This document shows positions 1-17,150 of a stretch of DNA of 20,000 nt, in pieces; position 1 is the stretch's first letter; the number at the start of each line of letters is the position of its first letter. The DNA is taken from the IMG/VR virus record IMGVR_UViG_3300020576_004096, one strand, 5' to 3'. The position numbers and the translations under genes are program-made. Below the pieces are notes generated by a model. That model had not been told where the DNA came from and searched no databases. It saw nothing but the letters and a program-made list of their open reading frames with translations. Source of the DNA: an uncultured virus (IMG/VR IMGVR_UViG_3300020576_004096). Its lineage: Duplodnaviria; Heunggongvirae; Uroviricota; Caudoviricetes.

Positions 1-24
1 TCTCTCACCATCTTTCAAGAGGAC

Positions 25-345
25 ATGGCAGCGGCGCAGGCTGAACTCGAAGCCTTGTTTCGCGACTTGAACGAAAACCTCGCCGAAGAAACAACGCTGG
101 GCCGCGAATACAACAAGGAAACCTTTGACGCTGCACTGCGCGTCGCTCGCGGCAAGGTCTTGCAGCGGTTCAGTAACTTCCCGATTGCCGCCGCACTGCT
201 TGAGTGTTTCCTCATGTACCTCGAAACCCAACTCGACCTCGGCGCGCATTTCCTCAACCTCCGCAAAGTGGCGAACGTCGAAGACCGAGCCAAGAGCGGA
301 AACCAGTTCTACAACCTTGACGGCGACCCCAAGAGCAAGGGCTGA
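25..345 (+). CDS. Hypothetical protein, 106 aa
   Basis: AGGAGG SD before ATG; C/G-ending codon bias like neighbours; TGA followed by AACTAAACTT at 347. Confidence 0.75.
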   Translation: MAAAQAELEALFRDLNENLAEETTLGREYNKETFDAALRVARGKVLQRFSNFPIAAALLECFLMYLETQLDLGAHFLNLRKVANVEDRAKSGNQFYNLDGDPKSKG

Positions 346-659
346 GAACTAAACTTCCTCGGCAACTCCAAAGAGCATGGATTGGTAGAACCAACAGGAA
401 ACCAACCGGCAGGTTGGGTGTATGGTTGGGAGCCTAGATACCCCTTGTTGGTAGGTCAAGCCAACTGGTCGGAACCCGAACGAGACTCGGGAGGTAGGTA
501 TACCCGGGCGGCCCTAAACAAGCCGCCCTTATGTTTGCGCCCTTCGTAATCGTTATGAGTGAAATGATCGGATCGACCCTCGATGATCTTCCCATCTATT
601 AATTGGTCACTTAAGCCACACAACCGCACACAATTTGCCTAAAAGTGACCTAACGACTG

Positions 660-770
660 CTGGATTTAGTGGAAACCGGGTCAGGGTTCCCAGGGTTTCG
701 TCAAATCCAGAGCGGGCTGCCCAGGGTTCCGAGACCCCGCAACGGGCTGCCTCAAGGCGGAGCCGCTCTG
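660..770 (+). ncRNA. Candidate structured non-coding element (long hairpin plus multi-branch domain)
   Basis: CTGGATTT 660-667 pairs with AAATCCAG 703-710 (inner GAAACC/GGTTTC); CAGAGCGG 708-715 pairs with CCGCTCTG 763-770 and encloses three small hairpins; lies in a ~700-bp gene-free gap. Confidence 0.35.
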
Positions 771-1071
771 AAGCCCCTAACGAAGATGTAACAGCGGGCT
801 GAAACGGCAGAACTAAACTTCCAAACCCATACAACCGCCAACCAAACCCAACCGCCTAGCGCAATCCGTTAGGGAAAGATTCGTATACCAACAGTATACA
901 GCAGGCAGAAATCGTTATGAGTGATACAGGTTCAGCGAGCAGCCCGATTGCGAACCCGAGCAGGTAGCGAGAACTAAACTTTGCGCGCAGAATCAATCCT
1001 CAACAACGGAAACAACCGCCGAGTAGGACTAAACTTCCGTTGGAGAACTGAGAAGCAGAAAGGAAAGCCCC

Positions 1072-1800
1072 ATGAAACTGATTACTCGCAACGAACTCCG
1101 AACTCTCCTCCTCGCCCAAACGGGCGCAACCATCGTTTCGCTCGTTTCGGTTGTCGAGCCGGACCTGCGGGCGAAGGACGACAACGGCAACGCAAACCCC
1201 TTCATGGCGGGCCGCAAACTCGCCGATGGGTTCACCATCGCCAAGACGAACAAGGCGACGGGCCGAATCGACACGGACTACAACCGCGAAGTCGAGAACC
1301 AACTGCGCAAGGAAATCATCGAGGAGCGCATGGCGGCGAACATGCCCCCGCTTCCGACCAACGAACTCGAAGCCGAAATCGAGGCGCGCTTCCGCAAGGG
1401 CGAATCTTGGCATCGCCCCATCATGGCGGCGAACGGGCGGCCTACTCCGCTCTCCGTCAACAAGAAGGACGGACCCAACGACGACGGCGCGGCCTATCTC
1501 CGCATCATCATCAGCGCAGAAGGGGACAGCGAATTCCTCAAGTATGAGGACGGCACAACGGTTCCGAGCGAGAACGTCATCCCCTTCAATCAGAAGAAGA
1601 AGCCCTACGCCAATCAGGGGACGAAGCAGCCGCGCCAGATTCGGACCTACGGCTTGGAGAACATCGTCGAGTTTACCATGAACGGCGAACGCTACCGAGT
1701 CGCGGACAACTTCCTCTCCCGCCCCGAGGCAATGAGGCACCGAATTTGGGATATCGCCGAGCAGTACCTCAACGGCGAGCGCAGCATGGCGAAGGTCTGA
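1072..1800 (+). CDS. Phage-type hypothetical protein, 242 aa
   Basis: AGAAAGGA SD; codon bias; NP...DY..V.N...YL...QG...R.Y.LENI pattern recalls an uncharacterised phage family (by eye). Confidence 0.85.
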   Translation: MKLITRNELRTLLLAQTGATIVSLVSVVEPDLRAKDDNGNANPFMAGRKLADGFTIAKTNKATGRIDTDYNREVENQLRKEIIEERMAANMPPLPTNELEAEIEARFRKGESWHRPIMAANGRPTPLSVNKKDGPNDDGAAYLRIIISAEGDSEFLKYEDGTTVPSENVIPFNQKKKPYANQGTKQPRQIRTYGLENIVEFTMNGERYRVADNFLSRPEAMRHRIWDIAEQYLNGERSMAKV

Positions 1801-1843
1801 AACTAAACTTTCATACCTGCCAATCCAACAAACTTTCATGGGC

Positions 1844-1888
1844 GACCAACGCCGAACGGGGACCAAACCGTATCGGCGTTCGGTCTTT
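1844..1888 (+). terminator. GC-rich hairpin with short T-run; possible intrinsic terminator
   Basis: GACCAACGCCGAACGG ... CCGTATCGGCGTTCGGTC then TTT, downstream of the 1072-1800 gene. Confidence 0.5.
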
Positions 1889-2004
1889 GGTAAAGCGAAA
1901 TGGTTATGAGTGAACATTCTGAGCCGTCGCCGAACTCAGAGCAAGTGAAAGAATCAGGACTAAACTATCGGCGCAACTCTGATTGTTGAAAGGAAGCCCA
2001 ACCC

Positions 2005-2403
2005 ATGAAAGCGCAGAACTCCGAACATTACATTCCGATTGGTCTTGACGACGCAGCGAGCAACGCAGCAACGGCGGTCGAAGAAGCGACCGATATCCGA
2101 GTCAAGGTCAAGAACGACCCGAGAACTCGCGGACAGAGGGACCATGTTGTTTTGCTTTGGAACGACGACGAACATACCGAAGTGTTCGTTATGGCGATCC
2201 TCATGGAAGTCTGCAAAATGACGCAAGAACAAGCGTTTGAGACTGCCATGAAAGTCCATAACGAGGGCAAGGCCCCCGTTTGGCGCGGCTTGCTCGAACC
2301 TTGCGAACTGAAGCGCGAACAAATCGCAACCTTCCGAGACAAGTTTATCGTTGAGAATGGAGGCCCCAACCTTCCCCTCAACGTCACCGTCGCGGAAGCG
2401 TAA
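2005..2403 (+). CDS. clpS: ATP-dependent Clp protease adaptor ClpS
   Basis: HVVLLWNDDEHTEVFVMAIL...A...AMKVHNEGKAPVW...CELK matches the ClpS core with the intact N-D-D/His N-degron pocket; SD GAAAGGA. Confidence 0.9.
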   Translation: MKAQNSEHYIPIGLDDAASNAATAVEEATDIRVKVKNDPRTRGQRDHVVLLWNDDEHTEVFVMAILMEVCKMTQEQAFETAMKVHNEGKAPVWRGLLEPCELKREQIATFRDKFIVENGGPNLPLNVTVAEA

Positions 2404-2435
2404 CTAAACTTCCAGAACAATGAACTTTCATGGGC

Positions 2436-2477
2436 GAGAGCGTTGAGCGAACTGCGGCGGTTCGCTCCGCTCTCTTT
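2436..2477 (+). terminator. GC-rich hairpin with T-run; possible intrinsic terminator
   Basis: GAGAGCG(TT)GAGCGAAC ... GTTCGCTCCGCTCTC then TTT after clpS. Confidence 0.55.
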
Positions 2478-2542
2478 AACCTTTGATAATCGTTATGAGT
2501 GAACCAGTCGCCGACTAAACTTCCGCGCAAAAATTCAAGAGT

Positions 2543-2734
2543 ATGAACAACAACCCTCCCAATCCCATGCGTCCCATGCCTCAAGGCCCCCAGAACGTCC
2601 ACAGCGTTACCCTCAACGGTCAAACCAAGACCGTCACCGGGGCGTTCAGCAGCGACCACGCCGCTCGCCAGGCGTTTGGGAGCAACTGGAACCGGGCGAC
2701 CGTCCAGACGACCCAAACGAAGAAGTGGATGTAA
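2543..2734 (+). CDS. Hypothetical protein, 63 aa
   Basis: ATG exactly 20 nt after motif end; bounded by next motif. Confidence 0.7.
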   Translation: MNNNPPNPMRPMPQGPQNVHSVTLNGQTKTVTGAFSSDHAARQAFGSNWNRATVQTTQTKKWM

Positions 2735-2769
2735 GGCAGAACTAAACTTCCCAACAGAAGGGGAAGAAC

Positions 2770-3117
2770 ATGCCGAACGTCAAGAAGAACTACCCGAAAC
2801 TCGCCGATATGAAGGCCGCTAACCCCGGTTTCTTCAACAAGGCCAACAAGTCTTTCTTTGGCGACCAGAAACATCGGGCGTATCATGGCTACCTCATTGT
2901 TGAGGGAACAACGCCGCACAGCGACGGCAGCAAGAGCAAGCGCATTGCCGTCTATCGGTTCGCTCCCGAACTGAACAAGGACGACCCATTCTTTCACGTT
3001 ACTCTCGCCGAGGACTCTCGCAACGTCGATAGGGTTAAGGAACTCATCAGCGAGTACGAGAAGAATGAGTGGCCGACGAAGGCCGCCCGAATCGCAGCGG
3101 AAGTTAAGAAGGCGTAA
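2770..3117 (+). CDS. Hypothetical protein, 115 aa
   Basis: ATG 20 nt after motif; stop TAA overlaps next motif; codon bias. Confidence 0.8.
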   Translation: MPNVKKNYPKLADMKAANPGFFNKANKSFFGDQKHRAYHGYLIVEGTTPHSDGSKSKRIAVYRFAPELNKDDPFFHVTLAEDSRNVDRVKELISEYEKNEWPTKAARIAAEVKKA

Positions 3118-3148
3118 CTAAACTTTCGCGCCAAGAGAGAAACGTACC

Positions 3149-3493
3149 ATGAAAGACGCAAAGGGCAACAAGGTCGGTATCGGAACTCTCCTCTACGCCA
3201 ATCTCGGAGACTACGGCCCCTGCGCTCGAATTTGCGACTTCAAGACAGACCCATTCGGAAGGGGTTACGATTGCGCTTATCTCGAATGGGGAACAACAAT
3301 CACCGACGAGTTTGGGAACAAGACGTTTATCCCAATCTATAGCAAGCCGCAACCAATCAGCCTTGAAAGCCTTAAGAACTCCTATTGGAGCGCAACGAGG
3401 ACTTTCTGGCAAGAACTCGCCCAACCGCTTCGCAAGTGGTGGTACGAATTCCGCGCCGAACTCAAGAAGGCATTGGCAACTTACAAGGACTGA
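3149..3493 (+). CDS. Hypothetical protein, 114 aa
   Basis: ATG 23 nt after motif; ends 4 nt before the next gene. Confidence 0.75.
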   Translation: MKDAKGNKVGIGTLLYANLGDYGPCARICDFKTDPFGRGYDCAYLEWGTTITDEFGNKTFIPIYSKPQPISLESLKNSYWSATRTFWQELAQPLRKWWYEFRAELKKALATYKD

Positions 3494-3497
3494 ACTC

Positions 3498-3719
3498 ATG
3501 GCAGCAACACCAATCAATCAGAAGCAGCCAGGCGACTCGGGCTACGTTTACTTCTACAACAGCCAACGAATCGAACTCTACGCCAAGAACGCAGCAGACG
3601 CAAAGGACAAGGCGGTGGCGTACTTCAAGCCGCCCAAGAGCAAACGCCATATGGTTCATGGCATGATTGCCGAGGACAAGGACGGCAACGCCGTCGTCCA
3701 TTCGACCGCTTCAATCTGA
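3498..3719 (+). CDS. Small phage-type hypothetical protein, 73 aa (start revised from 3312 to ATG 3498)
   Basis: MAATPINQKQPGDSGYVYFYNSQRIELYA...A.DKAVAYFK...MIAEDKDGNAVVHST; revised start removes overlap with the previous gene. Confidence 0.75.
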   Translation: MAATPINQKQPGDSGYVYFYNSQRIELYAKNAADAKDKAVAYFKPPKSKRHMVHGMIAEDKDGNAVVHSTASI

Positions 3720-3848
3720 AGAACTAAACTTCAGAACCAGCCCAAACTTCAATCGGTTTCGGTTGTTCAATTCCGAAACTAAACTTTCGGCGCAGAACAG
3801 ATAGGCATGAAGGGAATGAACCCTTCGCCTAACTGAAAGGACCGAATC

Positions 3849-4202
3849 ATGCCTCTCGACCGCAACCAACTCGCCAAACTCATGCAGAACCCCGCCCAAG
3901 CCCTCATGGAAGCGCAGCAAGCCGAAATCGCGGCAATGGCGGGCGGCAACGTCCCCGTCCAACTCCCCGGCATGACGCTCAAGGACATCGAGGACGAACT
4001 TCGCAAGCGCGCCGCCGCGGCCGAACAATTGGGCGACCGAACCATCGTTCGGACGACCGAATCCCTCATCGCCATGAATCGCCAATGGATGGCGGGCGTT
4101 GCGGGCGGCATGGTTGCCCTCCAGAACCAAGTCAACGAACTTCGAGCCGCCAACGCCAACGGCGGCAACGTCATCGAGGTCAAGCCCAAGAAGAAGAAGT
4201 AA
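3849..4202 (+). CDS. Hypothetical helical protein with basic tail, 117 aa
   Basis: GAAAGGA SD; strong codon bias; ends KPKKKK. Confidence 0.8.
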   Translation: MPLDRNQLAKLMQNPAQALMEAQQAEIAAMAGGNVPVQLPGMTLKDIEDELRKRAAAAEQLGDRTIVRTTESLIAMNRQWMAGVAGGMVALQNQVNELRAANANGGNVIEVKPKKKK

Positions 4203-4438
4203 TCCTCCAGCCGCCAAGCAGGGAGCCGACAATCGGTAATCCCCCAATAAGGGCCGCAAGGCCCTTTGGCGGTTTAAGAACTAAACTTTCTGAACCATGC
4301 CGAGACGTAAGGGACGAGCAATCCGCCAGCCGCAAGGTTGGCTCTCGGGCCAACGCAGCGTAATCGTTATGAGTGAATCAGGTTCGCCGAGGAACCAGGT
4401 CTATGCGAAACTAAACTTCCCAAACATTAAGAACTAAC

Positions 4439-4660
4439 ATGCTCGACCCCTTCGCCGCTACCGTTGAACATGGCAAAGTCATCATCGCCAACATCGAGGC
4501 GAATCTCCGAAGGAATCGCCAGCCCAAGCCGAAGCGTCCAACTCCCCAAACGCCCTACAAGGGTTCATGGGCGCACAGCGAACAACTCCGCAAAGAGCGA
4601 GGCGAGCCGCTCAAGACTCCGCCAGCGTTTGACAGCGGTTGGGTTACGCTTAAGTCGTAA
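4439..4660 (+). CDS. Hypothetical protein, 73 aa
   Basis: ATG 20 nt after motif; stop overlaps next motif. Confidence 0.7.
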   Translation: MLDPFAATVEHGKVIIANIEANLRRNRQPKPKRPTPQTPYKGSWAHSEQLRKERGEPLKTPPAFDSGWVTLKS

Positions 4661-4883
4661 CTAAACTTCCGCGCAAAGAGGGATTGGTATGCCGCTCAAC
4701 AGAGAACAATACAGTAACCTTTGGGACGAGGGCTACAACGCTTTCTTTGATAAGAAGCCCTCAACGTCCTGCCTTTACGCCGAAGGGTCCGAAGAGCGCA
4801 AGGCATGGATGGAAGGTTTCAACTACGCCGAGGAAACGCAGAAGTAAACTAAACTTCCGCGCAAAGAGGGATTGGTATGCCGC
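4659..4883 (+). repeat. Exact 37-bp direct repeat covering motif, spacer and start of two different genes
   Basis: AACTAAACTTCCGCGCAAAGAGGGATTGGTATGCCGC at 4659-4695 and 4847-4883. Confidence 0.95.
4689..4847 (+). CDS. Ribosome modulation factor (Rmf/CrpP)-like small protein, 52 aa (not in ORF track)
   Basis: Hand translation MPLNREQYSNLWDEGYNAFFDKKPSTSCLYAEGSEERKAWMEGFNYAEETQK fits the RMF pattern GY.A.......C.Y......R..W..G(W/F); ATG 20 nt after motif. Confidence 0.7.
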   Translation: MPLNREQYSNLWDEGYNAFFDKKPSTSCLYAEGSEERKAWMEGFNYAEETQK

Positions 4884-5104
4884 AAGACAATCAAAAGCCC
4901 AAACTCTCCGACGATGACCTTGTATGGTCAATGGTTGTGTTCATGGAAGAACACGGAGGCGAGCGCATGCTCAAAGCAACCGCAATGGCTTGCAAACTCA
5001 TCTCCGAGAAAGCCAAGACCGAACTCGACGGAACTTCCGCTCAAGTTTGGGAAGAAGCACGCAAGAGAGTCGCTTCCGCCGCTCAATACTTGGAGGAGAA
5101 CTAA
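4877..5104 (+). CDS. Hypothetical protein, 75 aa
   Basis: ATG 20 nt after motif; last codon and stop (AAC TAA) supplied by next motif. Confidence 0.75.
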   Translation: MPQDNQKPKLSDDDLVWSMVVFMEEHGGERMLKATAMACKLISEKAKTELDGTSAQVWEEARKRVASAAQYLEEN

Positions 5105-5128
5105 ACTTCCTGCCTACCCTTGTTAGGC

Positions 5129-5317
5129 ATGGAAGCAATCCAAACAAGAACTTGCGAGGATTGCAGAGAACCCTTTGAGGTACTCGACCCAACATGCAAG
5201 GCCGAAGTCCGTTGCATTACTTGTCAAGTTTTGTTTCGCTTGACGGGTAAGACCGCTCATCAGCGGTATATCGAGGAACTTAAGAAGCAACAGGAGGAAG
5301 CCCATGCCTCTGTCTGA
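5129..5317 (+). CDS. Small zinc-ribbon protein, 62 aa (start ATG 5129)
   Basis: CEDC...CITC pair; ATG 20 nt after motif. Confidence 0.7.
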   Translation: MEAIQTRTCEDCREPFEVLDPTCKAEVRCITCQVLFRLTGKTAHQRYIEELKKQQEEAHASV

Positions 5318-5612
5318 ACAAGAAGCCGCCAAAATCCGAGTCGAATCGAAGCGCGCCAGCAAGGGAATGGGAAACCTCATTCTCCCCATCCTCCGAGAGC
5401 CGCCCTTCCCAACTTCCCTCAAGGCGGGCGACATCGTTGGATTCCGCTACATTGTCGCAGGAGGCGAGCGTCCCCTCTACTTCAATGACAACGGTTGGGA
5501 AGTCGTTGGGTTCGCCCATGACCCCAAGACGAGCCGCCAGAACCTTGTGGTGGTTCATAAGGAGGACCGAACCATCAACATCGAACTGAAGGACATCACT
5601 TCGCGGAACTAA
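5304..5612 (+). CDS. Hypothetical protein, 102 aa
   Basis: AGGAGG SD inside upstream gene; stop supplied by motif. Confidence 0.8.
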   Translation: MPLSEQEAAKIRVESKRASKGMGNLILPILREPPFPTSLKAGDIVGFRYIVAGGERPLYFNDNGWEVVGFAHDPKTSRQNLVVVHKEDRTINIELKDITSRN

Positions 5613-5636
5613 ACTTCCTGCCATGACCTAAATAGC

Positions 5637-5882
5637 ATGGCAAACTTCTCCCTCATCAACATCCGCAAAGAGAGCAGCGACGGAACAATCATCGAGGGAG
5701 AGTGGATTCAGAACGCCGTCGCCTGTACGCTCGAAGAAGCAACCCAACGAGCCATCGGTTACGAGCGCAAAGTCTGGGGCGTTCAAACCCATGTTGGAGT
5801 CGTCGCAGAAGTCCCCTCATCAACGCCGCAAGGAGTTTGGGCAAACCTCAAGAGACTCGACCAGAGCCGTAGGTATTCGTAA
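5637..5882 (+). CDS. Hypothetical protein, 81 aa
   Basis: ATG 20 nt after motif; stop overlaps next motif. Confidence 0.75.
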   Translation: MANFSLINIRKESSDGTIIEGEWIQNAVACTLEEATQRAIGYERKVWGVQTHVGVVAEVPSSTPQGVWANLKRLDQSRRYS

Positions 5883-6068
5883 CTAAACTTTCCGCGCAAA
5901 AGGGAAAGTCAACGGAAAAAGCAAGGTTGCCGCGAGACTGGCGGCAGCAGCGGACGGGAGTTAGTCGCCCGAGCCGCACTTGTTACTTAACAACGCCTAA
6001 TCGTTATGAGTGAACGCCCGCTGCCTTACGAACGCCGAAACTAAACTTCTCTCTTAAATAACAAGAGC

Positions 6069-6368
6069 ATGGCAAAGCAGAAGACCGAATTCTACCAGCA
6101 CAAGGCCGAGACTTGGGACGCCAAGACTTGCGAGAAGAAGGCCAAGCATGTCGCTAAGGACGGTCTTGGAACGCCTTACCCTTTCAAGGGCTACATCGGC
6201 TCCTCCACCTCAATCCCTCCCAAGTACGGCGCAATCCGCTACAACGGCGGATGCGTCAGAGAGGGAGAGTGGTATCAGGGCGAATTCTTCCCGCTTCCCA
6301 ACGTCGCCGAAGGGTTCGTGATTCAGCAAGTCCCGAACTGGGGCTACCGAATCGTCAAGGAGTCTTAA
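6069..6368 (+). CDS. Hypothetical protein, 99 aa
   Basis: ATG 20 nt after motif; codon bias. Confidence 0.8.
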   Translation: MAKQKTEFYQHKAETWDAKTCEKKAKHVAKDGLGTPYPFKGYIGSSTSIPPKYGAIRYNGGCVREGEWYQGEFFPLPNVAEGFVIQQVPNWGYRIVKES

Positions 6369-6406
6369 GAACCGAGAACTAAACTTCTCGCGAAAGAGAG
6401 AAAGCC

Positions 6407-6634
6407 ATGAGCAACGCAACCAAGCCCAAGTCCAAGAAGTCCAAGCCCCGCAAGTCAGCCAACGTCCAACTCGGTGTTTACATCGACGTTGGGGATATCG
6501 TCCGAGTCGCTGGACCCGACAAGGCCCAGAAGATGGTGGACAAGATTCTCCGCTTCGTCGGCAACGACAAGACCCGAGTGAACATCCCCAAGAAACTCCG
6601 CAAGACCCTCGCAACCGTCGCCGGGAAGAACTAA
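6407..6634 (+). CDS. Small basic hypothetical protein, 75 aa
   Basis: ATG 20 nt after motif; stop supplied by motif; Lys-rich. Confidence 0.75.
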   Translation: MSNATKPKSKKSKPRKSANVQLGVYIDVGDIVRVAGPDKAQKMVDKILRFVGNDKTRVNIPKKLRKTLATVAGKN

Positions 6635-6676
6635 ACTTCCCAACCTTACCAGTTAGGTAAGAAAGGACTCTTACCC

Positions 6677-6808
6677 ATGAAAATCAGCGAAATGTCATTC
6701 GGTCAATTGATGGACGCCTTTGAGGTCGCCAAGATGGAGGGTGACGCCGAACTCATGTTGACCCTTTGGAATGAACTCAGCAACCGCCGAGGAGCCAGAG
6801 CCGCATGA
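6677..6808 (+). CDS. Small hypothetical protein, 43 aa (not in ORF track)
   Basis: AGAAAGGA SD; MKISEMSFGQLMDAFEVAKMEGDAELMLTLWNELSNRRGARAA; ATGA overlap with next ORF. Confidence 0.65.
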   Translation: MKISEMSFGQLMDAFEVAKMEGDAELMLTLWNELSNRRGARAA

Positions 6809-6921
6809 AGTATCAGACCGACGCAGACCGCGACGCCCAAGCCATCCAGAACTGGGCCGAACAGCAAGAGAAGAAGCACAACCGCAAGGAGAGGCAGCGG
6901 AAGAAGAAACGGGGGAACTAA
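6805..6921 (+). CDS. Small basic hypothetical protein, 38 aa (not in ORF track)
   Basis: MKYQTDADRDAQAIQNWAEQQEKKHNRKERQRKKKRGN; ATGA coupling upstream; stop supplied by motif. Confidence 0.55.
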   Translation: MKYQTDADRDAQAIQNWAEQQEKKHNRKERQRKKKRGN

Positions 6922-6959
6922 ACTTCCTGCCGTCGCTTGTAAGGAAGAAAGGACAGCCC

Positions 6960-7253
6960 ATGAAAACCGCTCGCAAGCCATTCCGAACCTTCCTCAAGAA
7001 CAGCAAGACCCACAGCCTCGAATTCGTCATCTCCCTCGTTCAGCGCATCAACCCCGAACTCTCCTACGACGACGCCAAGGCCGTCGCCCTCAAGGTCCAC
7101 AACAACGGCAAGGCCCTCGTCGCCAAGGGCAGCAGAGAGGCTTGCCGCAAGGCCGCTCGAATCGTCCGAGAGGCGGGAGAGGACGCAGCGGCCCTCCGCT
7201 ACCTCAGCCTCAAAGGGCAAGGCCCCATGAAGACGACCATCGACCGTAACTAA
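6960..7253 (+). CDS. Divergent ClpS-like protein, 97 aa (start revised from 6771 to 6960)
   Basis: FRTFLKNSKTHSLEFVISLV...LSYDDAKAVALKVHNNGKALVAKGSREAC aligns with the ClpS core; NDD replaced by NSK; AGAAAGGA SD. Confidence 0.75.
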   Translation: MKTARKPFRTFLKNSKTHSLEFVISLVQRINPELSYDDAKAVALKVHNNGKALVAKGSREACRKAARIVREAGEDAAALRYLSLKGQGPMKTTIDRN

Positions 7254-7369
7254 ACTTCGGTCGCAAAGAACAACAGAGTCAGACAACGGAACGAAGGGTC
7301 TTAACAAAGGAGCGAGCCATGAAGAACTAAACTCCCACCACCAAAGACTCACACAGATTTGATTGTCTC

Positions 7370-7406
7370 AGCAACCCCCAGCCATGTTGGTTGGGGTTTG
7401 CTATTT
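7370..7406 (+). terminator. Intrinsic terminator-like hairpin closing the GC-rich gene array
   Basis: AGCAACCCCCAGCCA-TGT-TGGTTGGGGTTTGCT followed by ATTT. Confidence 0.6.
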
Positions 7407-7600
7407 AATAATGGCGCAGTGGAAGACTCCTCACTCATAACGATTTAATTTTGTTGGAAAGGATACCCCACCCCCCAGCCCGCCCCTTCTCTAATCTAAA
7501 AGATACCTAGTTTGCGGAGGTAGCCTAAGGCATGCGCAGCTACGGAAAGACTCTTTGCCGATAATATACCTGAAAGCTTTGGGGTATACGAGGGATAATT

Positions 7601-7918
7601 ATGACAAACAAAGAGAAGAATAGAATTAAAAACGCAAAGAGTAAAGAGTATAGGACTTCATACAAGAAAAAGATTTATCAACAATGTAGAGAATACTGTT
7701 GGGAGTATAAAAGAACTCATCCATGTATGCATTGCGGAGAAAAGCATCCTGCATGTTTATCTTTTCATCATAGAGATCCATCAACAAAGGACGGAGATGT
7801 TACATACCTCTGTAAGTATGGAATGAAAAGAGTTTTAGCAGAAATTGCCAAATGCGATATACTCTGTCATAACTGTCATGCCAAGGTTCATTATAATGAA
7901 GGGCATGCCGTCACTTAA
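7601..7918 (+). CDS. HNH endonuclease, 105 aa
   Basis: CMHCGE...LSFHHRDP...EIAKCDILCHNCHAKVH: zinc-binding HNH signature. Confidence 0.9.
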   Translation: MTNKEKNRIKNAKSKEYRTSYKKKIYQQCREYCWEYKRTHPCMHCGEKHPACLSFHHRDPSTKDGDVTYLCKYGMKRVLAEIAKCDILCHNCHAKVHYNEGHAVT

Positions 7919-8118
7919 AATTCAGGAATAAAAGGATACCTTATCTCGCTCACCCGTAGAGTAAATTTCTAAAGGGTATACCGTCACTTAAAATTCGCGC
8001 AAGAAGGATACCTTGGATTGCTCCCCGCTAATTGTTCTGTATATCCCGCCTCTTGCTCCTCTAGTCGCATTCTTCAAACCAAACATCTAATAAAATTTCG
8101 CGCAACGAAAGGATACCT
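7908..8118 (+). repeat. Three related units TAAAATT(T)C...AAGGATACCT in an intergenic region
   Basis: CCGTCACTTAAAATTC at 7908-7923 and 7981-7996; AAGGATACCT at 7932, 8004, 8109; related AAAGGATACC 7458 and AAAAGATACC 7498. Confidence 0.8.
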
Positions 8119-8159
8119 CATTGTTCGATAGTATCTATGAGAAGAGAGGAAAACGAACA

Positions 8160-8549
8160 ATGAAGAATATACAAACAAAATCTTATAAGAAAGCAATGCA
8201 TGATCAGGAATGGAACTATAAAGGCCATACCTGCAAGATTGATATTGACGTTGAAAGAGACCATAGAGGCGTTCCAGAGGTTGCTAAAGCTTATCATACC
8301 GTTATAACTCCTGAAGGCAAAACGCTTTATCCTGATATAAGCCCATACGATACGGATCAAACAACTGTTAACATGTGGATTGACGCAGGTTATCCTCCTC
8401 GTCCTGGCGGTAGCAATCATGACAAGAAGAGCTTACAAGCTTTGTTAGCTCAGAAAGGTCAAGTCGGACACAGGGGTATACTTCCTCCAAAAGACAATAA
8501 CATTACTTGGCTAACGAATCAAGAGCCGCTTGGAGGTAACAATGTCTAA
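8160..8549 (+). CDS. Hypothetical protein, 129 aa (start likely ATG 8160)
   Basis: GAGGA upstream; begins MKNIQTKSYKKA; overlaps start of next gene. Confidence 0.75.
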   Translation: MKNIQTKSYKKAMHDQEWNYKGHTCKIDIDVERDHRGVPEVAKAYHTVITPEGKTLYPDISPYDTDQTTVNMWIDAGYPPRPGGSNHDKKSLQALLAQKGQVGHRGILPPKDNNITWLTNQEPLGGNNV

Positions 8550-9139
8550 CTGGTATGAAATGGCAAAGTTTGCGGACGGTCAATGGACTGGTCTCAGAAC
8601 CGACGAATTGCAAAATGATAAATCAATTGTTGATCAAGCTTGGGATCTATATCAAAAAGGCGTATCTCTATCAAAAAGGCGTATCTCTTCAGCAAATATC
8701 AAGACAAATGAATATCGGTCCCAATATTCTAAGAAACTTTTTATCCAAAAGAAAAGGGTTTCAACCAGAACGGTTTGGTCCTGGAAATAATGCGTATAAC
8801 GGCCCCGCCCTAGACGAAAATAAAGGAAAGAAAGCTGCTGATCTTTACAGAAAGGGCTATACCATCAATCAAATTGCTGCTCATTTTAATGTAGCTAATC
8901 AAACCCTTCTTCCATATCTTATGAAAGCTCTCAATCCAAATGAGCGAGCAGAAATAAGAGAAAAGTTCTTATCTAGAAAAGACTCTAACTTCAAGAAAAT
9001 AGTTGATAAGATTATAGGTTTCAAAAACAAAAATCCAAACCTATCGTCTTCTCAAATATCAAAACTATTAGGTATAGAAGTTCATAATGTAAAGCGTATT
9101 GTTGAAATGTTTTATGACGGGCAACAGGAAGCGGCATGA
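8542..9139 (+). pseudogene. Triple helix-turn-helix protein frameshifted by a 19-bp tandem duplication
   Basis: GGAGG SD then MSNWYEMAKFA; TATCAAAAAGGCGTATCTC tandem at 8650-8668 and 8669-8687; removing one copy joins track ORFs 8530-8790 and 8555-9139 into one 192-aa frame with three HTH-like units. Confidence 0.8.
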
Positions 9140-9762
9140 AAATCATAGTTTCTGAAAACTATAAAATGAATCTACTACCTATCCCTGGTAGTAGATTTTT
9201 TCGTTATCGTTGCGACCATTGTGGCGATGTAATGAGAGCAAAAGAATCTGATATAGAAAAAGCAAGAAAAGATCGCATTCCTATATACTGTCTAAAATGC
9301 AAACCAACAGGAATACCTGGAAAGAGTCTAACCAAAGACCTTAATACACTTGAAGAAGATCCAGACGCTTTTAAGAAAAACCTAGAATCAAACTCTCATG
9401 AACATGGTTTGGTAAAATTTGCAGGCTTTGATACTGGGCATTGGCAAACCAAAAGCTTCAGAGACTCGCTATCCTTATTGCCAGTTCAAGTTCAACAGCT
9501 AGCCTCTCAAAAATATCAAACGCTTCTTTCCAATCCTCAACAAGTTGGCATTAAGCCATTACCCGAAAATAGGGGAAAGCTAGAAGTTTGGTCTGCTCAG
9601 GTTGGCGGTCGTTACAGAGCATTAGCTGTTAAGTTTCAATCTCAGTTTATATGGTATTGGATCGGCTCTCACGAAGAGTACAATAAGCTCAAGAGCATGC
9701 CTCCAAACTCTCAAGTCATGAACTTCGTTCAAAAGATTATGAGGGAAGGACGGTCCTCATGA
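9136..9762 (+). CDS. Zn-ribbon plus RelE/ParE-superfamily toxin-like domain fusion, 208 aa
   Basis: CDHC...CLKC at N-terminus; C-terminal TKSFRDSLSLLP..VQ..A...LLSNP...WSAQVGGRYRAL...WYWIGSHEEYNKL. Confidence 0.75.
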   Translation: MKIIVSENYKMNLLPIPGSRFFRYRCDHCGDVMRAKESDIEKARKDRIPIYCLKCKPTGIPGKSLTKDLNTLEEDPDAFKKNLESNSHEHGLVKFAGFDTGHWQTKSFRDSLSLLPVQVQQLASQKYQTLLSNPQQVGIKPLPENRGKLEVWSAQVGGRYRALAVKFQSQFIWYWIGSHEEYNKLKSMPPNSQVMNFVQKIMREGRSS

Positions 9763-10652
9763 GTTGGTACGACCTTGCTAAGTTTGCAGACAGGCTCACC
9801 TTGCCTCCCGGCAGGAGTCCCGAAGAAAGACCGGCGCTACAGAAGAACGACGTAGTAAGGGTCTTTCATGGTTTTAGGGATTTAGAGGACGCCATAGCCG
9901 CATGTCGCTACGGCTTATCTGGAAAGTCAAGAGTTGGTAGGGTTTACTCATATGAAGCCGACAACAATCCTACAGGGTTATTTGTAACAACAGACCCAAA
10001 GAAAGCTTCGGAGTTTGGAGCTTGGATAGTTGAGTTTCATGCGAACATGAACGAGCTTGAGGCTCCCGTTTGGCCAGGCGGTTCTTATACCGTTCAAGGG
10101 CAGATGGCTGAATACTTTGGCAACAGCAAAGCAAAAAGAGAAGAAGAAAGAGTTCGAGCAAGGCAACGAGCGGTAGACCGCAACATTCCGCCCATCTCTC
10201 AGAGCGAAAGACCAGAGCTTGCAAATACTCTTTTAGGATTTGGCGAGAGCCAAGCTTTATTCGTTGGACACTTGAATCCAAACCGTATTATCAGAGTATG
10301 GCTAAGAGACAACCGTAACGGTCAGTTATCCAATGTATCAAGACAACAGTTCTTAGCGAACAACAAGGGTTACGAGTTCAAGGGCAACAGCAATCATGAA
10401 TCAACCTTGGCAGCAAGAAGAGTGTTTAGGGTAGACGAGGAGTTTGACCCTAACAAGTTTGTACAGAGCTTTGTTGATAGGTATGGCGGAAGATGGACCT
10501 TTGACGAAGCGAAGAAAGCTTTGATAAGAGGTTTTGGTAATAAGAGTGTACAAGTTATGAAGAGCGAGCTATATAGGTATGTATGGCCTAAACAGTTACC
10601 CGCAGCTTTGAGATGGCTTGGCAGAGAGTACAAGAATCGCAATGTGGTATAA
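9759..10652 (+). CDS. Putative ADP-ribosyltransferase-fold protein, 297 aa
   Basis: RVFHG...GL...GLFVTTDPKKASEFG..IVEF pattern of His-type ART strands; N-terminal MSWYDLAKFA. Confidence 0.55.
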   Translation: MSWYDLAKFADRLTLPPGRSPEERPALQKNDVVRVFHGFRDLEDAIAACRYGLSGKSRVGRVYSYEADNNPTGLFVTTDPKKASEFGAWIVEFHANMNELEAPVWPGGSYTVQGQMAEYFGNSKAKREEERVRARQRAVDRNIPPISQSERPELANTLLGFGESQALFVGHLNPNRIIRVWLRDNRNGQLSNVSRQQFLANNKGYEFKGNSNHESTLAARRVFRVDEEFDPNKFVQSFVDRYGGRWTFDEAKKALIRGFGNKSVQVMKSELYRYVWPKQLPAALRWLGREYKNRNVV

Positions 10653-10950
10653 ATTCGCGCAAAATAGAAGAACAGGGTTTAAGGTCGTTGGCTTTGCCAA
10701 CGGCAAGGCTTATTCTCTAGCCAACCGCAACCTCCAATACAACCTTACCATTGGCAGCGTCGTTGGCGATACTTTCTTAGGAACGACAGAACAGTTCGTT
10801 ATAGACTATTACAGTAATATGACGGACGGGCAAGAGCTTTTGCTCACCTATTCGTATGAAGAAGCTGATATAATATCAGGAGGCGATTCTGCGAATGGCG
10901 GCGAGGTAAGGGTAAGCAAGGCAAGACTTGAAAGCGTCAGACCTCTTTAG
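10642..10950 (+). CDS. Hypothetical protein, 102 aa (start ATG 10642)
   Basis: Begins MWYKFAQ, overlapping the previous stop. Confidence 0.75.
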   Translation: MWYKFAQNRRTGFKVVGFANGKAYSLANRNLQYNLTIGSVVGDTFLGTTEQFVIDYYSNMTDGQELLLTYSYEEADIISGGDSANGGEVRVSKARLESVRPL

Positions 10951-12049
10951 GCGGCTCGAACAATAGATTTCGCGCAACAGGAGGAAGCCCAACTTGGTTG
11001 GGTTTTTGTGTTATTGGTTTGAGCGGAGCCGTTGGAGGAGTCTTTGGCGGCAACTGTAACCCAACCTCTCGAAGGTCTAAGTCCCATTCCTCAAACTCGG
11101 TAGCATTACTAAGAAGGTCCATTGCTCGACGAATCTCGCCCTTTGAGTCTTGGGTAACGTCAGCTATATAATCGAGCATGTCTCCGGTTTGGTGAGCGGA
11201 GTTGATAACAATATTGATTGTAGCGAGGGCTTGACCGATAGGTTGGTTCTCAACGCTCTTGAGCATGCTATAGGCATTCTCTATTCTTTGTCTTGTTTGG
11301 TCTATACCTTGGGGCTTCCAGAAGCCGTACCAAATAGGGAAGCATAAGAACTGAGCAAACTCTATACATATTTCCTCAAGGTCATACATTTGGGAAGCGG
11401 CCTCAAGGAATCCTGCCAAATCGTCGCCGTGCCAGGTGCTAAGATATTCGGAGAACGGCATTTCTTCGTAGCGTTGTTTGATTTCAGCTTGTATTTGTTC
11501 CTCGTCTATTTCTTCTTGGTTTCTATTAGCTTCGTAAAAAGCGTTTTCGGTATCAGCTTCAATAAGCTCATACTTTGCGGTTTCAAAGAGTTTATGAAGA
11601 ACAGGAGCTTGGCCGTTCTTAACAGGTTCGTCGAGTCGGTGTAGCTCTGGAGAAATGTTAAACTTCTTTCTTAGTCTTTGCATATCGCATTCGCTCTCGA
11701 TCATTTCGGCGAGGGATTGCGGGGAATCTCCGTTTATTTCAAACCATTCTTTAGCTCTTTTGGTTGCCCAAGTTCGAGGGGTAAGGAGGGCGTGACCCGA
11801 AAGCCAGTTTTCAAAGACTGGAACGAGTATATCCACAAAGTCTGCGATAACGGTTCTTGCGGAGTTTTCTATTTGTTTGAGGATATTTTCAAGTCTCTTT
11901 GGGTAGCCGTTGAAGTTATGGTGTTGTAAGTATTGGTACTTATAAGTAAGTTCATAGAGGGCATAGAGCATGCTTGATATGGAGTCTCTGTTATATTGGA
12001 CGTTCCATATAGGCGTTGTTGCAAACTTTGCTCTAGAGTACCAGTTCAT
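10937..12049 (-). CDS. Hypothetical helical protein with Pro-rich tail, 370 aa
   Basis: Long ORF, the only credible minus-strand gene; begins MNWYSRAKFA. Confidence 0.85.
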   Translation of the reverse strand: MNWYSRAKFATTPIWNVQYNRDSISSMLYALYELTYKYQYLQHHNFNGYPKRLENILKQIENSARTVIADFVDILVPVFENWLSGHALLTPRTWATKRAKEWFEINGDSPQSLAEMIESECDMQRLRKKFNISPELHRLDEPVKNGQAPVLHKLFETAKYELIEADTENAFYEANRNQEEIDEEQIQAEIKQRYEEMPFSEYLSTWHGDDLAGFLEAASQMYDLEEICIEFAQFLCFPIWYGFWKPQGIDQTRQRIENAYSMLKSVENQPIGQALATINIVINSAHQTGDMLDYIADVTQDSKGEIRRAMDLLSNATEFEEWDLDLREVGLQLPPKTPPTAPLKPITQKPNQVGLPPVARNLLFEPPKEV

Positions 12050-12131
12050 ACCACTATGTATCGAGAAAGTATGCTCTAATCCTTGATTGTTGAGAAAGGA
12101 AAGGCTGTTTATATTTCGATACTATAGTATC
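12050..12131. promoter_or_regulatory. Divergent pair of putative promoters AAGG-N16-TCGATA
   Basis: Minus: AAGG 12084-12081, TCGATA 12064-12059, ATG 9 nt later. Plus: AAGG 12096-12099, TCGATA 12116-12121, ATG 10 nt later. Confidence 0.55.
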
Positions 12132-12611
12132 ATGTGGTATAAAGCCGCTAACGAGACCTTTGTAACTTTGTATCATGGCACCAGCCGTGAGAACTATCTT
12201 TTAATGAATAGGACTGGCGTTTTGAGGAAATCGGACGTACCGAACCTTACAACGAGCAAAGAGTTAGCGAAGGCGTTTGGGAAGCAGTTCTTTGAGGGCG
12301 ACGAAACAGTAATCCTTTCTTTTGTACTTCCGCGAAATTTAATAGAAGGTCGGGTTGGTACGGTAGTAACGACGGTTGGCGACATTCCAATGAGATACTG
12401 CAAGGGCGTTGAGAAGTTTGACAGCATGGACGCTTCGATAGGAAAGCCAGCGGACATAAGGCATGGGTTAGAGGTTGGTCAGCAGGTTGGGGGATGGACA
12501 GCGGAGCAAGAGCGTATGGCGGCGGAGAAGCTTAGGGAGTTGGAGAGGAATCCAAAGGCTTATATACCGGCATGGATGAGGAACGACGGTAGGTTTAGAG
12601 GGAAAGTGTGA
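12132..12611 (+). CDS. Putative ART/Tpt1-fold protein, 159 aa (start ATG 12132)
   Basis: TLYHGTSREN......G......NLTTSKELAKAF...VIL; begins MWYKAA; catalytic Glu not evident. Confidence 0.55.
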   Translation: MWYKAANETFVTLYHGTSRENYLLMNRTGVLRKSDVPNLTTSKELAKAFGKQFFEGDETVILSFVLPRNLIEGRVGTVVTTVGDIPMRYCKGVEKFDSMDASIGKPADIRHGLEVGQQVGGWTAEQERMAAEKLRELERNPKAYIPAWMRNDGRFRGKV

Positions 12612-12687
12612 AAAAGTTAAGCAATTATACCTCTGGGAAATTTTTTCGTGCGAGCATGGCGGCGTTCGACGAGAAGGGGTTTAGCGG

Positions 12688-15003
12688 ATGGATTGGTTAA
12701 AGAAAGCGAGCAATATGAAGAAGAAAGCGAACGGCCCATGCCCGTTATGCGGTTCTCCGATGACGAAGAGGAAGGGACCGTATGGCGAGTTTTTTGGATG
12801 CAGCAAATATCCGCAATGCAAAGGAGTAAGGAAGCTTAATGAAGCTCCTGCCGCTCCTCAGAACAGACAACCTCAAGCTCCCCAACCTCGTCCGCCGCAG
12901 GCTGCTATGCCGCAGCCTGAAAAGCAAAGAACATGGATTCTTGCAACGATGATTGCAACTGGCGAGCCTGTTGTTGCCGCTAAGGGAGCGACGGGATGGG
13001 ACTATCAAACAGAAAATGGCGACTTTGGAACAATCCCAAACGCTGAAGTTGCGAAAACTATTAAGTCAGTTGAAGAAAACGGTCAAAAGGTTTCAGGCAC
13101 AAATCCTGCGGTTCTTTTTAACAAGTATCATCAACTCAATCCTAAAGCTCAAGAAGCTGAACAGCAACAACCCGAAGCTCCTGGCCGAATTCCAGCCAAC
13201 AGAATCAGTCCTCAACAAAAAGATATTGAGAACTCATTCCTTAATACGCCTCAGAGCATTATGATCAACGCTCTTGCCGGGTCTGGTAAGACGACCATGC
13301 TTCGTCACTTGGCAAGCTTTAAGCCGCCTGGCGAAAAGTGGCTATACTTGGTTTTCAACAAAAAGAACCAAGTTGAAGCTTCTACGGGCAAGGGTAAGTT
13401 CCCGAACGGTGTTGAAGTTAAGACAAGCCACAGCTTCCTTGGACAAGTTCTAGGTCGAAGCTCTGAACTTAACATGATTCAGCATACAGATTTATGGAAC
13501 AACTTTGGCGAGCGTATTACTCAGATTCTTGACCACATGATGGAAAGAGACAACACGTTCCCTCAATCTGTAAAATACGTTGCAAAGCAAACAATCAAGC
13601 AACTTGCTTCTTTGAGTAAGGCGTTTGCGGTTCATCCTCAGTCGCAAAATGCTGCTCAGCAAATGACAGAGATTATCCGTCAGTACAATATTGATACAGA
13701 CTTATCTCCTAATAAGGATAAGCAACCAAACGCAGCGGGCGTCAACTATGCGCCTCAGATTATAGACAAGGCTCTTGACTTGTTGCATTATTGCTTGCCC
13801 GGAAATGCGCCAACGCCAGAGCTTAACTCTATGAGAGACCATGACGATACGTTATGGTATTCTGCGATCAACGACGTAAAGTGGCCTCATTTTGACGTTG
13901 TTTTGGCTGACGAAGTTCAAGACTTCAATACTTGTCAAACGATTATGTTGCAGAAGTTATCTCAGGCAGGCGCGAGGGTTATTGCGGTAGGCGACCCAAA
14001 TCAAGCTATCTATATGTTTAGAGGCGCTGACGCTCAAGCTTTCCAGAAGGTTCAAGGCGTTCTTGGTCAGGCTCCGAACGGTAATGTTCCTCATGAACTT
14101 CCTGTTAACTACAGAAGCGGAAGAGCCATTATCAAGTACGTCAATGAAAAGACCCATGTTAAGAATCTTCAGGCTGGTAGGGACTTTGACGGTCAAGTAA
14201 CCGAAGGCCGCAAGGTTGAAGAAGCTATGGGCGATATCTTCAACGAGAAGAGGCAAAGAAATAGGCTTGCGGAACAAACAGCGTTTATTGCGAGAACGAA
14301 CTCTCCTCTTGTAAAGACTGCTCTTGAGCTTATGAAGAACAATGTTGAGTTTGTCATCATTGGTAGAGACTTCTCAAAAGAGCTTGTTGACCATATCGAA
14401 AAGATAACGGGCAAGGGCAGAATGGCGAAGAAGGTTCCTATACGAGTTCTTGGCGAAACGATCAACAACTTCCTTAGCGAAAGAGAAACAGCTTGGAAGG
14501 GCAAGATTGCAAGAGAGTCAGAACTCAAGGATATGAAGGCAACAACCGAAGCCTTGAGTAATGTTATTGAGTATTTAGCGGCTTCTGGCTATAGAGACCC
14601 TCAGTTGAATATGAGAGTTGACGACAGCACGGGCTTTATTGATTATATCAAGAAGAAGTTTGCTGGTGTCAATATGGATAATGCGGAAGAAGCAGAGGCT
14701 TTGAAGAAGAAAGACCCTCTATCCTATGTAACTCTTACTTCTGCTCATAGATCTAAGGGTTTGGAGTTTGATAGAGTCTTTATTCTTGAACCGAATCTCT
14801 TTCCTCATCCTAAAGCCAAAACGCCAGAAGAGCTTTTACAAGAAGAGAATGCTAAGTATGTCGCATATACAAGAGCGATGAAGGGCTTGCATGTTCTTGC
14901 TCCAAGCAAGGAAGAAAAGAAAGAAAGAAGAGAGGCTTCTTCCAAGGTTGGTTGGTATGTCAAGGCAAAGAGTACCAAGAAGAAAAGGAAAAAGAAAAGG
15001 TGA
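12688..15003 (+). CDS. UvrD/Rep-family SF1A helicase with N-terminal topoisomerase-type C4 zinc ribbon, 771 aa
   Basis: CPLCGSPM..RKGPYGEFFGCSKYPQC; ALAGSGKTT, DEVQD, VGDPNQAIYMFRGA, NYRS, ARTN, SAHRSKGLEF, YVAYTRA. Confidence 0.95.
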   Translation: MDWLKKASNMKKKANGPCPLCGSPMTKRKGPYGEFFGCSKYPQCKGVRKLNEAPAAPQNRQPQAPQPRPPQAAMPQPEKQRTWILATMIATGEPVVAAKGATGWDYQTENGDFGTIPNAEVAKTIKSVEENGQKVSGTNPAVLFNKYHQLNPKAQEAEQQQPEAPGRIPANRISPQQKDIENSFLNTPQSIMINALAGSGKTTMLRHLASFKPPGEKWLYLVFNKKNQVEASTGKGKFPNGVEVKTSHSFLGQVLGRSSELNMIQHTDLWNNFGERITQILDHMMERDNTFPQSVKYVAKQTIKQLASLSKAFAVHPQSQNAAQQMTEIIRQYNIDTDLSPNKDKQPNAAGVNYAPQIIDKALDLLHYCLPGNAPTPELNSMRDHDDTLWYSAINDVKWPHFDVVLADEVQDFNTCQTIMLQKLSQAGARVIAVGDPNQAIYMFRGADAQAFQKVQGVLGQAPNGNVPHELPVNYRSGRAIIKYVNEKTHVKNLQAGRDFDGQVTEGRKVEEAMGDIFNEKRQRNRLAEQTAFIARTNSPLVKTALELMKNNVEFVIIGRDFSKELVDHIEKITGKGRMAKKVPIRVLGETINNFLSERETAWKGKIARESELKDMKATTEALSNVIEYLAASGYRDPQLNMRVDDSTGFIDYIKKKFAGVNMDNAEEAEALKKKDPLSYVTLTSAHRSKGLEFDRVFILEPNLFPHPKAKTPEELLQEENAKYVAYTRAMKGLHVLAPSKEEKKERREASSKVGWYVKAKSTKKKRKKKR

Positions 15004-17117: not shown

Positions 17118-17150
17118 AGGTTTTGATTGTAAAAGTACGAATTTTAGAAT

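Follow-up and report, generated by a model that had tools for sequence, protein, structure and literature searches.

A short motif held 20 nt ahead of start codons and non-coding units in a huge tailed phage: a candidate lineage-specific promoter

The PeSL elements of T4-type phages carry promoters of the early, sigma-70 type. In the available text of their description, they are composite terminator/promoter units, short and repeated, that lie between small genes of mostly unknown function in a variable region of a large phage (PMC4122927). Two other large phages, phiKZ and AR9, place promoter words of their own before many genes and encode multisubunit RNA polymerases; in the accessible parts of the two reports, the authors detected no leaderless transcript in phiKZ (PMC8244752), and the 5' untranslated regions of AR9 measure 26-491 nt (PMC5312081). 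Here we describe a 20,000-nucleotide stretch of DNA from an uncultured virus (IMG/VR record IMGVR_UViG_3300020576_004096; Caudoviricetes), hereafter the window, which is part of a huge tailed phage and carries an array of small genes and non-coding units punctuated by copies of a 10-nt motif, AACTAAACTT. The array resembles PeSL-bearing regions in the layout just given, and differs from them in that its motif has neither sigma-70 geometry nor a linked stem-loop and instead combines a rigid 20-nt ruler with lineage-specific words. Judged from sequence, we regard it as about evenly balanced whether this motif is the core of a lineage-specific phage promoter, placed at -30..-21, that fixes transcription start 21 nt further on and so yields leaderless mRNAs, short-leader mRNAs and small RNAs.

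The exact 10-mer occurs 21 times in the window and its 8-mer core, ACTAAACT, 25 times, against 0.08 and 0.64 copies expected from shuffled sequence. The initial annotation of this DNA had counted the 10-mer 25 times on one strand in 7 kb; that figure belongs to the core, and the confinement to a single strand holds, all 25 core copies lying on the + strand between 348 and 7333 (347-7334 as 10-mers). What follows the motif is set at a fixed distance. In 11 of 25 copies an ATG begins exactly 20 nt past the end of the 10-mer, at the position termed +21 (377, 2543, 2770, 3807, 4439, 4689, 4877, 5129, 5637, 6069, and 6407, all as first reported), and each of the 11 is preceded by C or T, again in keeping with the earlier observation. 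Nine of these ATGs open reading frames (ORFs) of 52-115 aa, as would be expected of the start codons that all 11 were taken to be, whereas the frames that begin at 377 and 3807 run for just 3 and 9 codons, and these two ATGs are not gene starts: the former is the first bases of a non-coding RNA, the latter those of a 42-nt leader. The remaining 14 copies have A or G at +21, which is a purine in 25 of 25. A short leader begins at this position in five copies (1057, 1988, 3146, 6659, and 6946), and in four of the five, those ahead of ATGs 1072, 2005, 6677 and 6960, +21 falls on the first base of (A)GAAAGGA, a coincidence that had been noticed correctly at the outset.

The same arrangement is found in relatives, which are IMG/VR contigs of 0.26-0.49 Mb. 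A second repeat of the window, AATCGTTATGAGTGAA, led to two of them, G001 (494,120 bases) and G002 (370,652 bases). G001, itself a huge tailed phage, is collinear with the window in 13 pieces at 66-87% identity, and encodes terminase, portal, tail fibre proteins, Pol III alpha, DnaB, primase, RecA, topoisomerases, DnaJ, and many methylases. The core ACTAAACT occurs there 66 times in forward and 6 times in reverse orientation, against 18 and 30 for a control word; forward copies are denser from 278 kb to 326.5 kb, where G+C falls from about 0.54 to 0.40, as it does in the window. Between 256 and 356 kb, 17 of 57 copies are followed by an ORF of at least 30 aa that starts exactly at +21, other spaced copies have AAGGAG- or GAAAGGA-type leaders, and isolated copies remote from the array (183769, 202408, and 233221) obey the same spacing rule.

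Homologues of the 242-aa array protein led to further loci, among them L220 (an IMG/VR contig of 256,820 bases), L216, L218, L219, and L223. In L220, L216, and L218 the commonest 8-mer is CTAGACTT, contained in GGCTAGACTTTC; it occurs 32, 19 and 16 times, respectively, in forward and never in reverse orientation, and is followed by an ATG exactly 20 nt on in 36 of its 67 copies, most of the others starting AGAAAGGAAC leaders or non-coding stretches with A or G at +21. The most distant locus that still gave a signal is L219: four of its six TCACTGA copies have an ATG exactly 24 nt further on, which is the same register and therefore places CT at -28/-27 in all three lineages; L223 holds nothing comparable to the motif. 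Three lineages accordingly display three words (AACTAAACTT, GGCTAGACTT, and TCACTGA) in one register. The initial annotation had staked its proposal on the spacing persisting in the rest of the genome and in relatives; because the ruler is kept across the G001 genome and in lineages with other words, this check fails to refute it. When 149 non-redundant CTA[AG]ACT sites of two lineages are pooled (25 from the window, 72 from the G001 array, 32 from L220, 14 from L216, and 6 from L218), an ATG lies at offset 20 in 64, the next offsets being 35 (9 sites), 18 (7), and 37 (7), with 2 at offset 19 and 4 at offset 21. Position +21 is A in 110 of these sites, G in 22, C in 5, and T in 12, and position -1 is C in 71, T in 47, A in 20, and G in 11. 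Beyond these relatives, the array DNA had no match among cultured phages, the helicase of the window matched only at below 60% identity, a locus search with a single protein found nothing, and a 14-mer scan of viral contigs gave 120 loci, all of them chance single matches.

The ruler also survives natural exchange of the sequences that it governs. The whole stretch is present in one DNA-like sequencing run and parts of it in several wastewater, sludge, and freshwater runs; contigs of four runs were mapped to window positions 1-9000, any parts of the window without contig cover giving no evidence either way. All 13 listed loose contig ends inside the array fall at motif copies. Five of them, on the side behind the motif (3140, 4290, 4292, and 5900, the last in two runs), lead into other cassettes, each with an ATG exactly 20 nt past the motif. 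Additionally, 4659-4846 is missing from one long contig, whose joint (4658 to 4847) runs across 37 letters that a pair of identical promoter units has in common; the other listed joints mostly have short sides and are best taken as repeat-driven. The position of the loose ends and the ATG at +21 of the new cassettes together indicate that motif units are natural cassette boundaries. This absence of 4659-4846 and the 13 loose ends recall the gene insertions, deletions and replacements at repeats that are reported, in the text available, for PeSL regions (PMC4122927). An integron-like reading, in which the repeats would be attC sites, was set aside by eye alone, no inverted-repeat site structure being seen.

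With respect to the kind of signal that the motif provides, sites of the sigma-70 type (-35/-10, 16-18 nt apart) number 3 in 8.2 kb against 3.5 expected, none of them at a motif copy, and sequence logos contain no hexamer at -12..-7 or -35..-30 relative to +21. The logos bear out the first impression of a missing -10 hexamer and a partial CGCGCAA extension: one clade repeats part of a GCGCAAA block at -17..-11, and the other has an A-rich stretch in which the A at -11 is well conserved. Of the original proposal that a single element at -30..-21, unlike sigma-70 promoters, fixes the transcription start, the conserved element, the rigid 20 nt and the lack of sigma-70 geometry are supported, and the start at +21 is what we infer from them. 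The Y(-1)R(+1) step invoked as its mark is weak in its first half, since Shine-Dalgarno (SD)-led ATGs inspected in the window likewise have C at -1, and Y(-1) alone is therefore no start-site marker.

The spacers that end in an ATG at +21 have, on average, no SD signal beyond that of their composition: their anti-SD duplex energies average -2.84 and those of shuffled spacers -2.66, which agrees with the earlier remark that most such cases lack a convincing SD. The leadered class averages -4.28, with a median of -5.6, and leaders counted from +21 cluster at 14-19 nt. Fixed ATG distances and spacers mostly devoid of an SD would also be expected if the word acted in RNA as a translation signal, pairing with rRNA outside the anti-SD site and placing the start codon 20 nt downstream, and the position of the motif right after an upstream stop codon in 15 of 25 copies would suit such a role, as would an apparent, loose resemblance to a known phage translational enhancer. 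We nevertheless consider this account very improbable. Non-coding units or a tRNA follow nine copies in the window and many in relatives, ATGs of the leadered class stand 35-38 nt away from the word, and the change of word between related phages counts against pairing with rRNA because the rRNA site is conserved. Taken together, the copies before non-coding units and tRNA, the start of the non-coding unit RNA A (see below), the SD contrast, and the absence of sigma-70 sites fit a promoter with its start at +21, and poorly fit a translation signal.

As a promoter with its start at +21, the motif would work as follows. A core at -30..-21, with CT at -28/-27, would be accompanied by a weaker GCGCAAA or A-rich block at about -17..-6 and recognised by a factor such as a sigma-70-family protein of the relative or an unrecognised protein, and the rigid 20-nt ruler would make transcription begin at a pyrimidine|A step. 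A leaderless mRNA would result wherever this A belongs to an ATG; elsewhere the transcript would open with an SD leader of 14-19 nt or a small structured RNA, and in one relative with the precursor of a tRNA. Because related lineages use different words in the same register, the factor is probably encoded or modified by the phage. Most cassettes lack terminators, and successive transcripts would therefore probably be nested, running to the terminator at 7376-7396. The repeated promoter units of 30-37 nt would also offer points of homology for the gain, loss, and exchange of cassettes.

Several observations weigh against this interpretation. The +21 starts are predictions from sequence, and the RNA-library material consists of contigs that cannot show where transcripts start; contig ends share some 30 letters, in the manner of branch points in an assembly, and are therefore uninformative about starts. 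Individually, about a third of the ATG-at-+21 spacers have an AAGGA-like stretch at a usable distance, 38% reaching an anti-SD energy of -4.5 kcal or lower against 21% of shuffles. Nine hand-picked orthologous pairs, compared without gaps to look for a conservation step at +21, gave a tie (84/180 against 84/180), and of the three non-coding units that have the block ACTTTCAT|GGGCG in common, two are cut through it by +21. A hairpin between the 3' flank of the motif (CTTYC) and GRAAG in the spacer, convincing at first sight, was rejected, exact 5-bp complements occurring in 18 of 149 sites against 15.3 +/- 3.0 expected and 466 of 2000 permutations reaching 18. The search of G001 turned up neither a polymerase nor a factor of matching geometry. 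Lastly, TAAACT and TAGACT, in two lineages, conform to TAnnnT, the minimal -10 pattern, and have a G+C-rich block and then A's behind them.

This last point leads to a different promoter, in which the start would lie close to the motif. TAAACT/TAGACT would be the -10-like hexamer that host RNA polymerase reads by means of a sigma factor of host or phage, GCGC would be the discriminator, and transcription would begin at the following A's, some 7 nt past the motif, so that most of the 20 nt would be a leader of 13-15 nt. Both main variants retain T1, A2 and T6 of a -10 hexamer, the tCnGCGCAAA consensus stands at the right distance, some spacers have AAGGA-like stretches, and the relative has three sigma-70-family proteins and no polymerase of its own that was found. 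Such a promoter provides no reason for so sharp a ruler (64 sites at offset 20 against 2 at 19 and 4 at 21) and leaves the purine at +21 before non-coding units unexplained. Moreover, the spacers on average have no SD signal beyond that of their composition, the third lineage, with TCACTGA, lacks TAnnnT in that register, a -35 element is absent, and the first clade has no TG extension. We regard a start near the motif as unlikely, if still worth weighing.

RNA processing was also considered. Here, a phage or host endoribonuclease would read the word in a long polycistronic RNA and cut further downstream at a set distance, so that leaderless or short-leader mRNAs are freed along with small RNAs; the same ruler and the same strand bias would be expected, and no polymerase to match a promoter was found. 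Only two terminator-like hairpins occur on the + strand within the 7-kb array, and RNA-library contigs run across motif copies (1087-2011, for example). Both facts suit processing, and they do not support the monocistronic mRNAs envisaged initially. On the other side, some other type of promoter would have to feed the 7 kb here, or about 48 kb in G001, and none is visible; a Y|A step, as at +21, typically marks transcription starts; and single G001 copies scattered far from the array, such as that at 183769, also precede genes at +21. Nor is any nuclease known to us that would count off 20 nt from a linear word of 10 nt. Processing is, in our estimation, a poor candidate, somewhat less so than translational pairing and more so than a start near the motif.

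The initial annotation had advised a search for phage RNA polymerase or sigma genes, and in G001 this search was half rewarded, with three sigma-70-family genes and no RNA polymerase. Specifically, G001 has no match to RNA polymerase beta or beta-prime domains or to TBP (PF00352), and none to the sigma-54 DNA-binding domain (PF04552). There was likewise no match to single-subunit polymerase (PF00940), although the control matched nowhere either, so that absence is not shown; PHROGs profiles detected no single-subunit RNA polymerase in 30 large ORFs. Three giant ORFs stand out: G001 373117-383436 (3439 aa), G001 11918-21691 (3257 aa), and L205:8676-15311 (2212 aa). The 3439-aa and 2212-aa products have no PHROG match, the 3257-aa product matches only unnamed PHROGs and Kelch repeats, and neither the 3439-aa nor the 3257-aa ORF shows likeness to solved polymerase chains, the former resembling no solved chain at all. 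They are candidates for unrecognised virion or transcription proteins.

Comparison with other described promoters sets the system apart in several ways. Like archaeal and eukaryotic TATA-box promoters, it would have an element near -26, a Y/R step and a start codon at +1, a likeness that holds only if +21 is the start; unlike them, its word is not a T/A run, the genes of its relatives are of bacterial type (sigma-70 family, DnaB, Pol III alpha, RecA, and DnaJ), and G001 yielded no TBP. Promoters of the T7 type reach the start site, from about -17 to +6, and those of the N4 virion RNA polymerase form a hairpin. The motif shares with T7-like promoters a phage-specific, highly conserved word that differs between related phages and, as predicted, an exact start position, and departs from them in that its conserved core stops 20 nt short of the predicted start and no polymerase of that kind turned up; it departs from N4 in that the hairpin test was negative and the giant ORFs are unlike solved polymerase chains. 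A main block from -30 to -20 with a second near -15 recalls both sigma-54 promoters (-24/-12) and the activator box of T4 middle promoters (at about -30), yet the logos lack the GG (-24)/GC (-12) consensus of the former, whose DNA-binding domain is not found in G001, and the conserved -10 TAnnnT at -12..-7 of the latter. With phiKZ and AR9 the likeness is that of large phages with promoter words of their own, and the difference is that both encode multisubunit polymerases (PMC8244752, PMC5312081), and none was found in G001.

A bolder version of the promoter reading is that of an orthogonal phage transcription system, in which a word of 10-12 bp centred on -26, in TATA-box geometry, would be read by an unrecognised phage factor or polymerase that fires at a fixed distance. 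Under this version, the specificity of the word would have diverged between lineages (AACTAAACTT, GGCTAGACTT, and TCACTGA), and dozens of leaderless mRNAs and a family of small RNAs would be produced in a phage family from wastewater and freshwater metagenomes. We hold it to be possible and, on balance, doubtful. In a search of full texts, no phage-promoter paper with the 9-mer string was among the matches listed (primer lists and coronavirus papers), and this system was absent among the matches listed on leaderless promoters of jumbo phages. The word resembles a coronavirus transcription signal, a likeness that was dismissed as coincidental because this is a tailed double-stranded DNA phage with terminase and portal.

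The non-coding units merit description in their own right. Nine window copies precede non-coding stretches, all nine with a purine at +21, and non-coding units follow motif copies in every lineage. Six small units, A to F, were delimited (377-600, 841-971, 1831-1957, 2432-2512, 4309-4408, and 5911-6038), each with a motif copy in front, the box (T)AATCGTTATGAGTGA near its end, and then a short variable tail that reaches the next motif. This 3' box is the second repeat, TCGTTATGAGTGA at 550..562 on the + strand, with further + strand copies at 912, 1901 (one mismatch), 2490, 4364, and 6001; it is retained in a lineage with a different promoter word, and our guesses as to its role are a stop or processing signal or a protein-binding site. 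Just beyond the array end the box recurs in inverse orientation (7431..7443, - strand), an arrangement shared with G001. Right after the array terminator lies a conserved GGCGCAGTGGAAG (window 7413-7443, G001 near 326560-326598, L220 near 12850), which the inverse 13-nt box follows in the window and in G001; the inverse box may block antisense entry into the array or be part of a - strand RNA. Unit A, the non-coding RNA A of about 186 nt, has the same 11 bases from +21 in the window (377) and in L220, where the spacers are identical at 11 of 20 positions and the downstream sequences at 17 of 20. Unit D and the unit at G001 323700 each have a long hairpin ahead of UUUAA, and the hairpins differ in sequence in what looks like compensatory change. 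At E<=1, Rfam had nothing for the window but a chance snoRNA match, and ARAGORN detected no tRNA there. Small frames beginning MG... and MSE... in these units were rejected as genes because their peptides are not conserved.

In G001, a tRNA-Lys begins 37 nt past a motif copy, behind a tRNA remnant. An apparent tRNA only 4 nt past the motif, which would have excluded a start at +21, proved to be this 5' remnant, the real tRNA-Lys lying at 37 nt; the remnant (L178 13919-13951) immediately precedes it. The array of this relative holds 17 tRNA genes in clusters (L178 1104-14025; G001 297-310 kb), seven of them consecutive tRNA-Leu genes.

The array as a whole (347..7405) runs on the + strand, with its 25 motif copies, its 18 small ORFs and its six or more non-coding units. 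The idea of one promoter per gene was nearly right: 15 of the 18 ORFs have a copy of their own, and the three without one (3498, 5304, and 6805) directly follow the preceding ORF. Copies without an ORF of their own would, to judge by their setting, drive small RNAs or stand in tandem. Such tandem pairs, resembling double promoters, occur in the window at 972/1027, 3722/3777 and 7248/7325 and in G001 at 322234/322285 and 324063/324113, mostly 50-55 nt apart with one pair at 77 nt. Fifteen of the 25 motif copies stand within 8 nt of the stop codon upstream, and in five of these (5099, 5607, 6629, 6916, and 7248) the TAA of the motif is itself that stop.

Copies with a gene starting at +21 are those at 2513..2522 (ATG 2543, 63 aa), 2740..2749 (ATG 2770, 115 aa), 4409..4418 (ATG 4439, 73 aa), 4659..4668 (overlapping the stop codon 4658-4660; ATG 4689, 52 aa), 4847..4856 (ATG 4877, 75 aa, its 37-nt unit identical to that at 4659), 5099..5108 (stop at 5102-5104; ATG 5129, 62 aa, with ORF 5304-5612 next), 5607..5616 (ATG 5637, 81 aa), 6039..6048 (ATG 6069, 99 aa), and 6377..6386 (ATG 6407, 75 aa). 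Short leaders would follow GACTAAACTT at 1027..1036 (predicted +1 at 1057, A; a 15-nt AGAAAGGA leader to ATG 1072, 242 aa), GACTAAACTA at 1958..1967 (1988, G; 17-nt GAAAGGA leader to ATG 2005, 132 aa), and the copies at 3116..3125 (overlapping the stop codon 3115-3117; 3146, A; 3-nt leader to ATG 3149, 114 aa, with ORF 3498-3719 next), 6629..6638 (6659, A; 18-nt leader to ATG 6677, 43 aa, with ORF 6805-6921 next), and 6916..6925 (6946, A; 14-nt leader to ATG 6960, 97 aa). The copy at 3777..3786 has its predicted start at 3807, from which a 42-nt leader with GAAAGGA reaches ATG 3849 (117 aa).

Units A to F would be transcribed from copies at 347..356 (predicted +1 at 377), 811..820 (841, A), 1801..1810 (abutting the stop codon 1798-1800; 1831, A), 2402..2411 (overlapping the stop codon 2401-2403; 2432, G), 4279..4288 (4309, A), and 5881..5890 (5911, A); in two variant contigs each, units E and F are replaced by cassettes with an ATG at +21. 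The remaining copies are those at 972..981 (1002, A) and 3722..3731 (3752, A), each in tandem 55 nt upstream of the next, at 7248..7257 (7278, G), and the last, AACTAAACTC at 7325..7334 (7355, A). This last copy would give an RNA of about 50 nt (7355-7405), little beyond the terminator-like hairpin with its T-rich tail (7376..7396) that closes the array.

Two array proteins are ClpS-like adaptors (2005-2403 and 6960-7253; PF02617, E 2e-17 and 1e-11). The 52-aa protein at 4689-4847, whose cassette is absent from a natural variant, matches ribosome modulation factor (RMF) just below the Pfam cut-off (27.4 vs 27.9 bits). All three count as small, host-directed products; under the bolder version above, they may tilt the cell towards SD-independent translation. 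The array has a G+C of 0.53-0.57 against 0.31-0.48 in the rest of the window, and its coding strand is rich in A and C and poor in T. Across all three lineages (window 1-7400 against 7400-20000, G001 290-326 kb, and L220 1-12000), array G+C lies 10-15 points above the rest of the phage (0.50-0.56 vs 0.36-0.43), again with a T-poor coding strand, which may reflect adaptation to host codon use before phage tRNAs act. Downstream of the array, the window encodes an HNH endonuclease directly past its end (7601-7918), a multi-HTH protein (8555-9139), a 208-aa protein with a ParE-like toxin domain (9136-9762), a Cdc6-lid AAA+ protein on the other strand, a UvrD-type helicase, and a PcfJ-like protein interrupted by an intein with a LAGLIDADG domain (17151-20000).

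If +21 is the true start, these phages would possess a class of bacterial-virus promoter with archaeal/eukaryotic geometry in at least three natural specificity variants, and, to our knowledge, leaderless genes would here be seen for the first time as a large block in a huge phage. The ruler would then supply more than 100 precise start-site predictions, the motif would mark the binding place of its factor, and short modular promoter words with an exact ruler would make useful engineering parts. Such a system would also explain how small host-takeover genes are shuffled in these phages.

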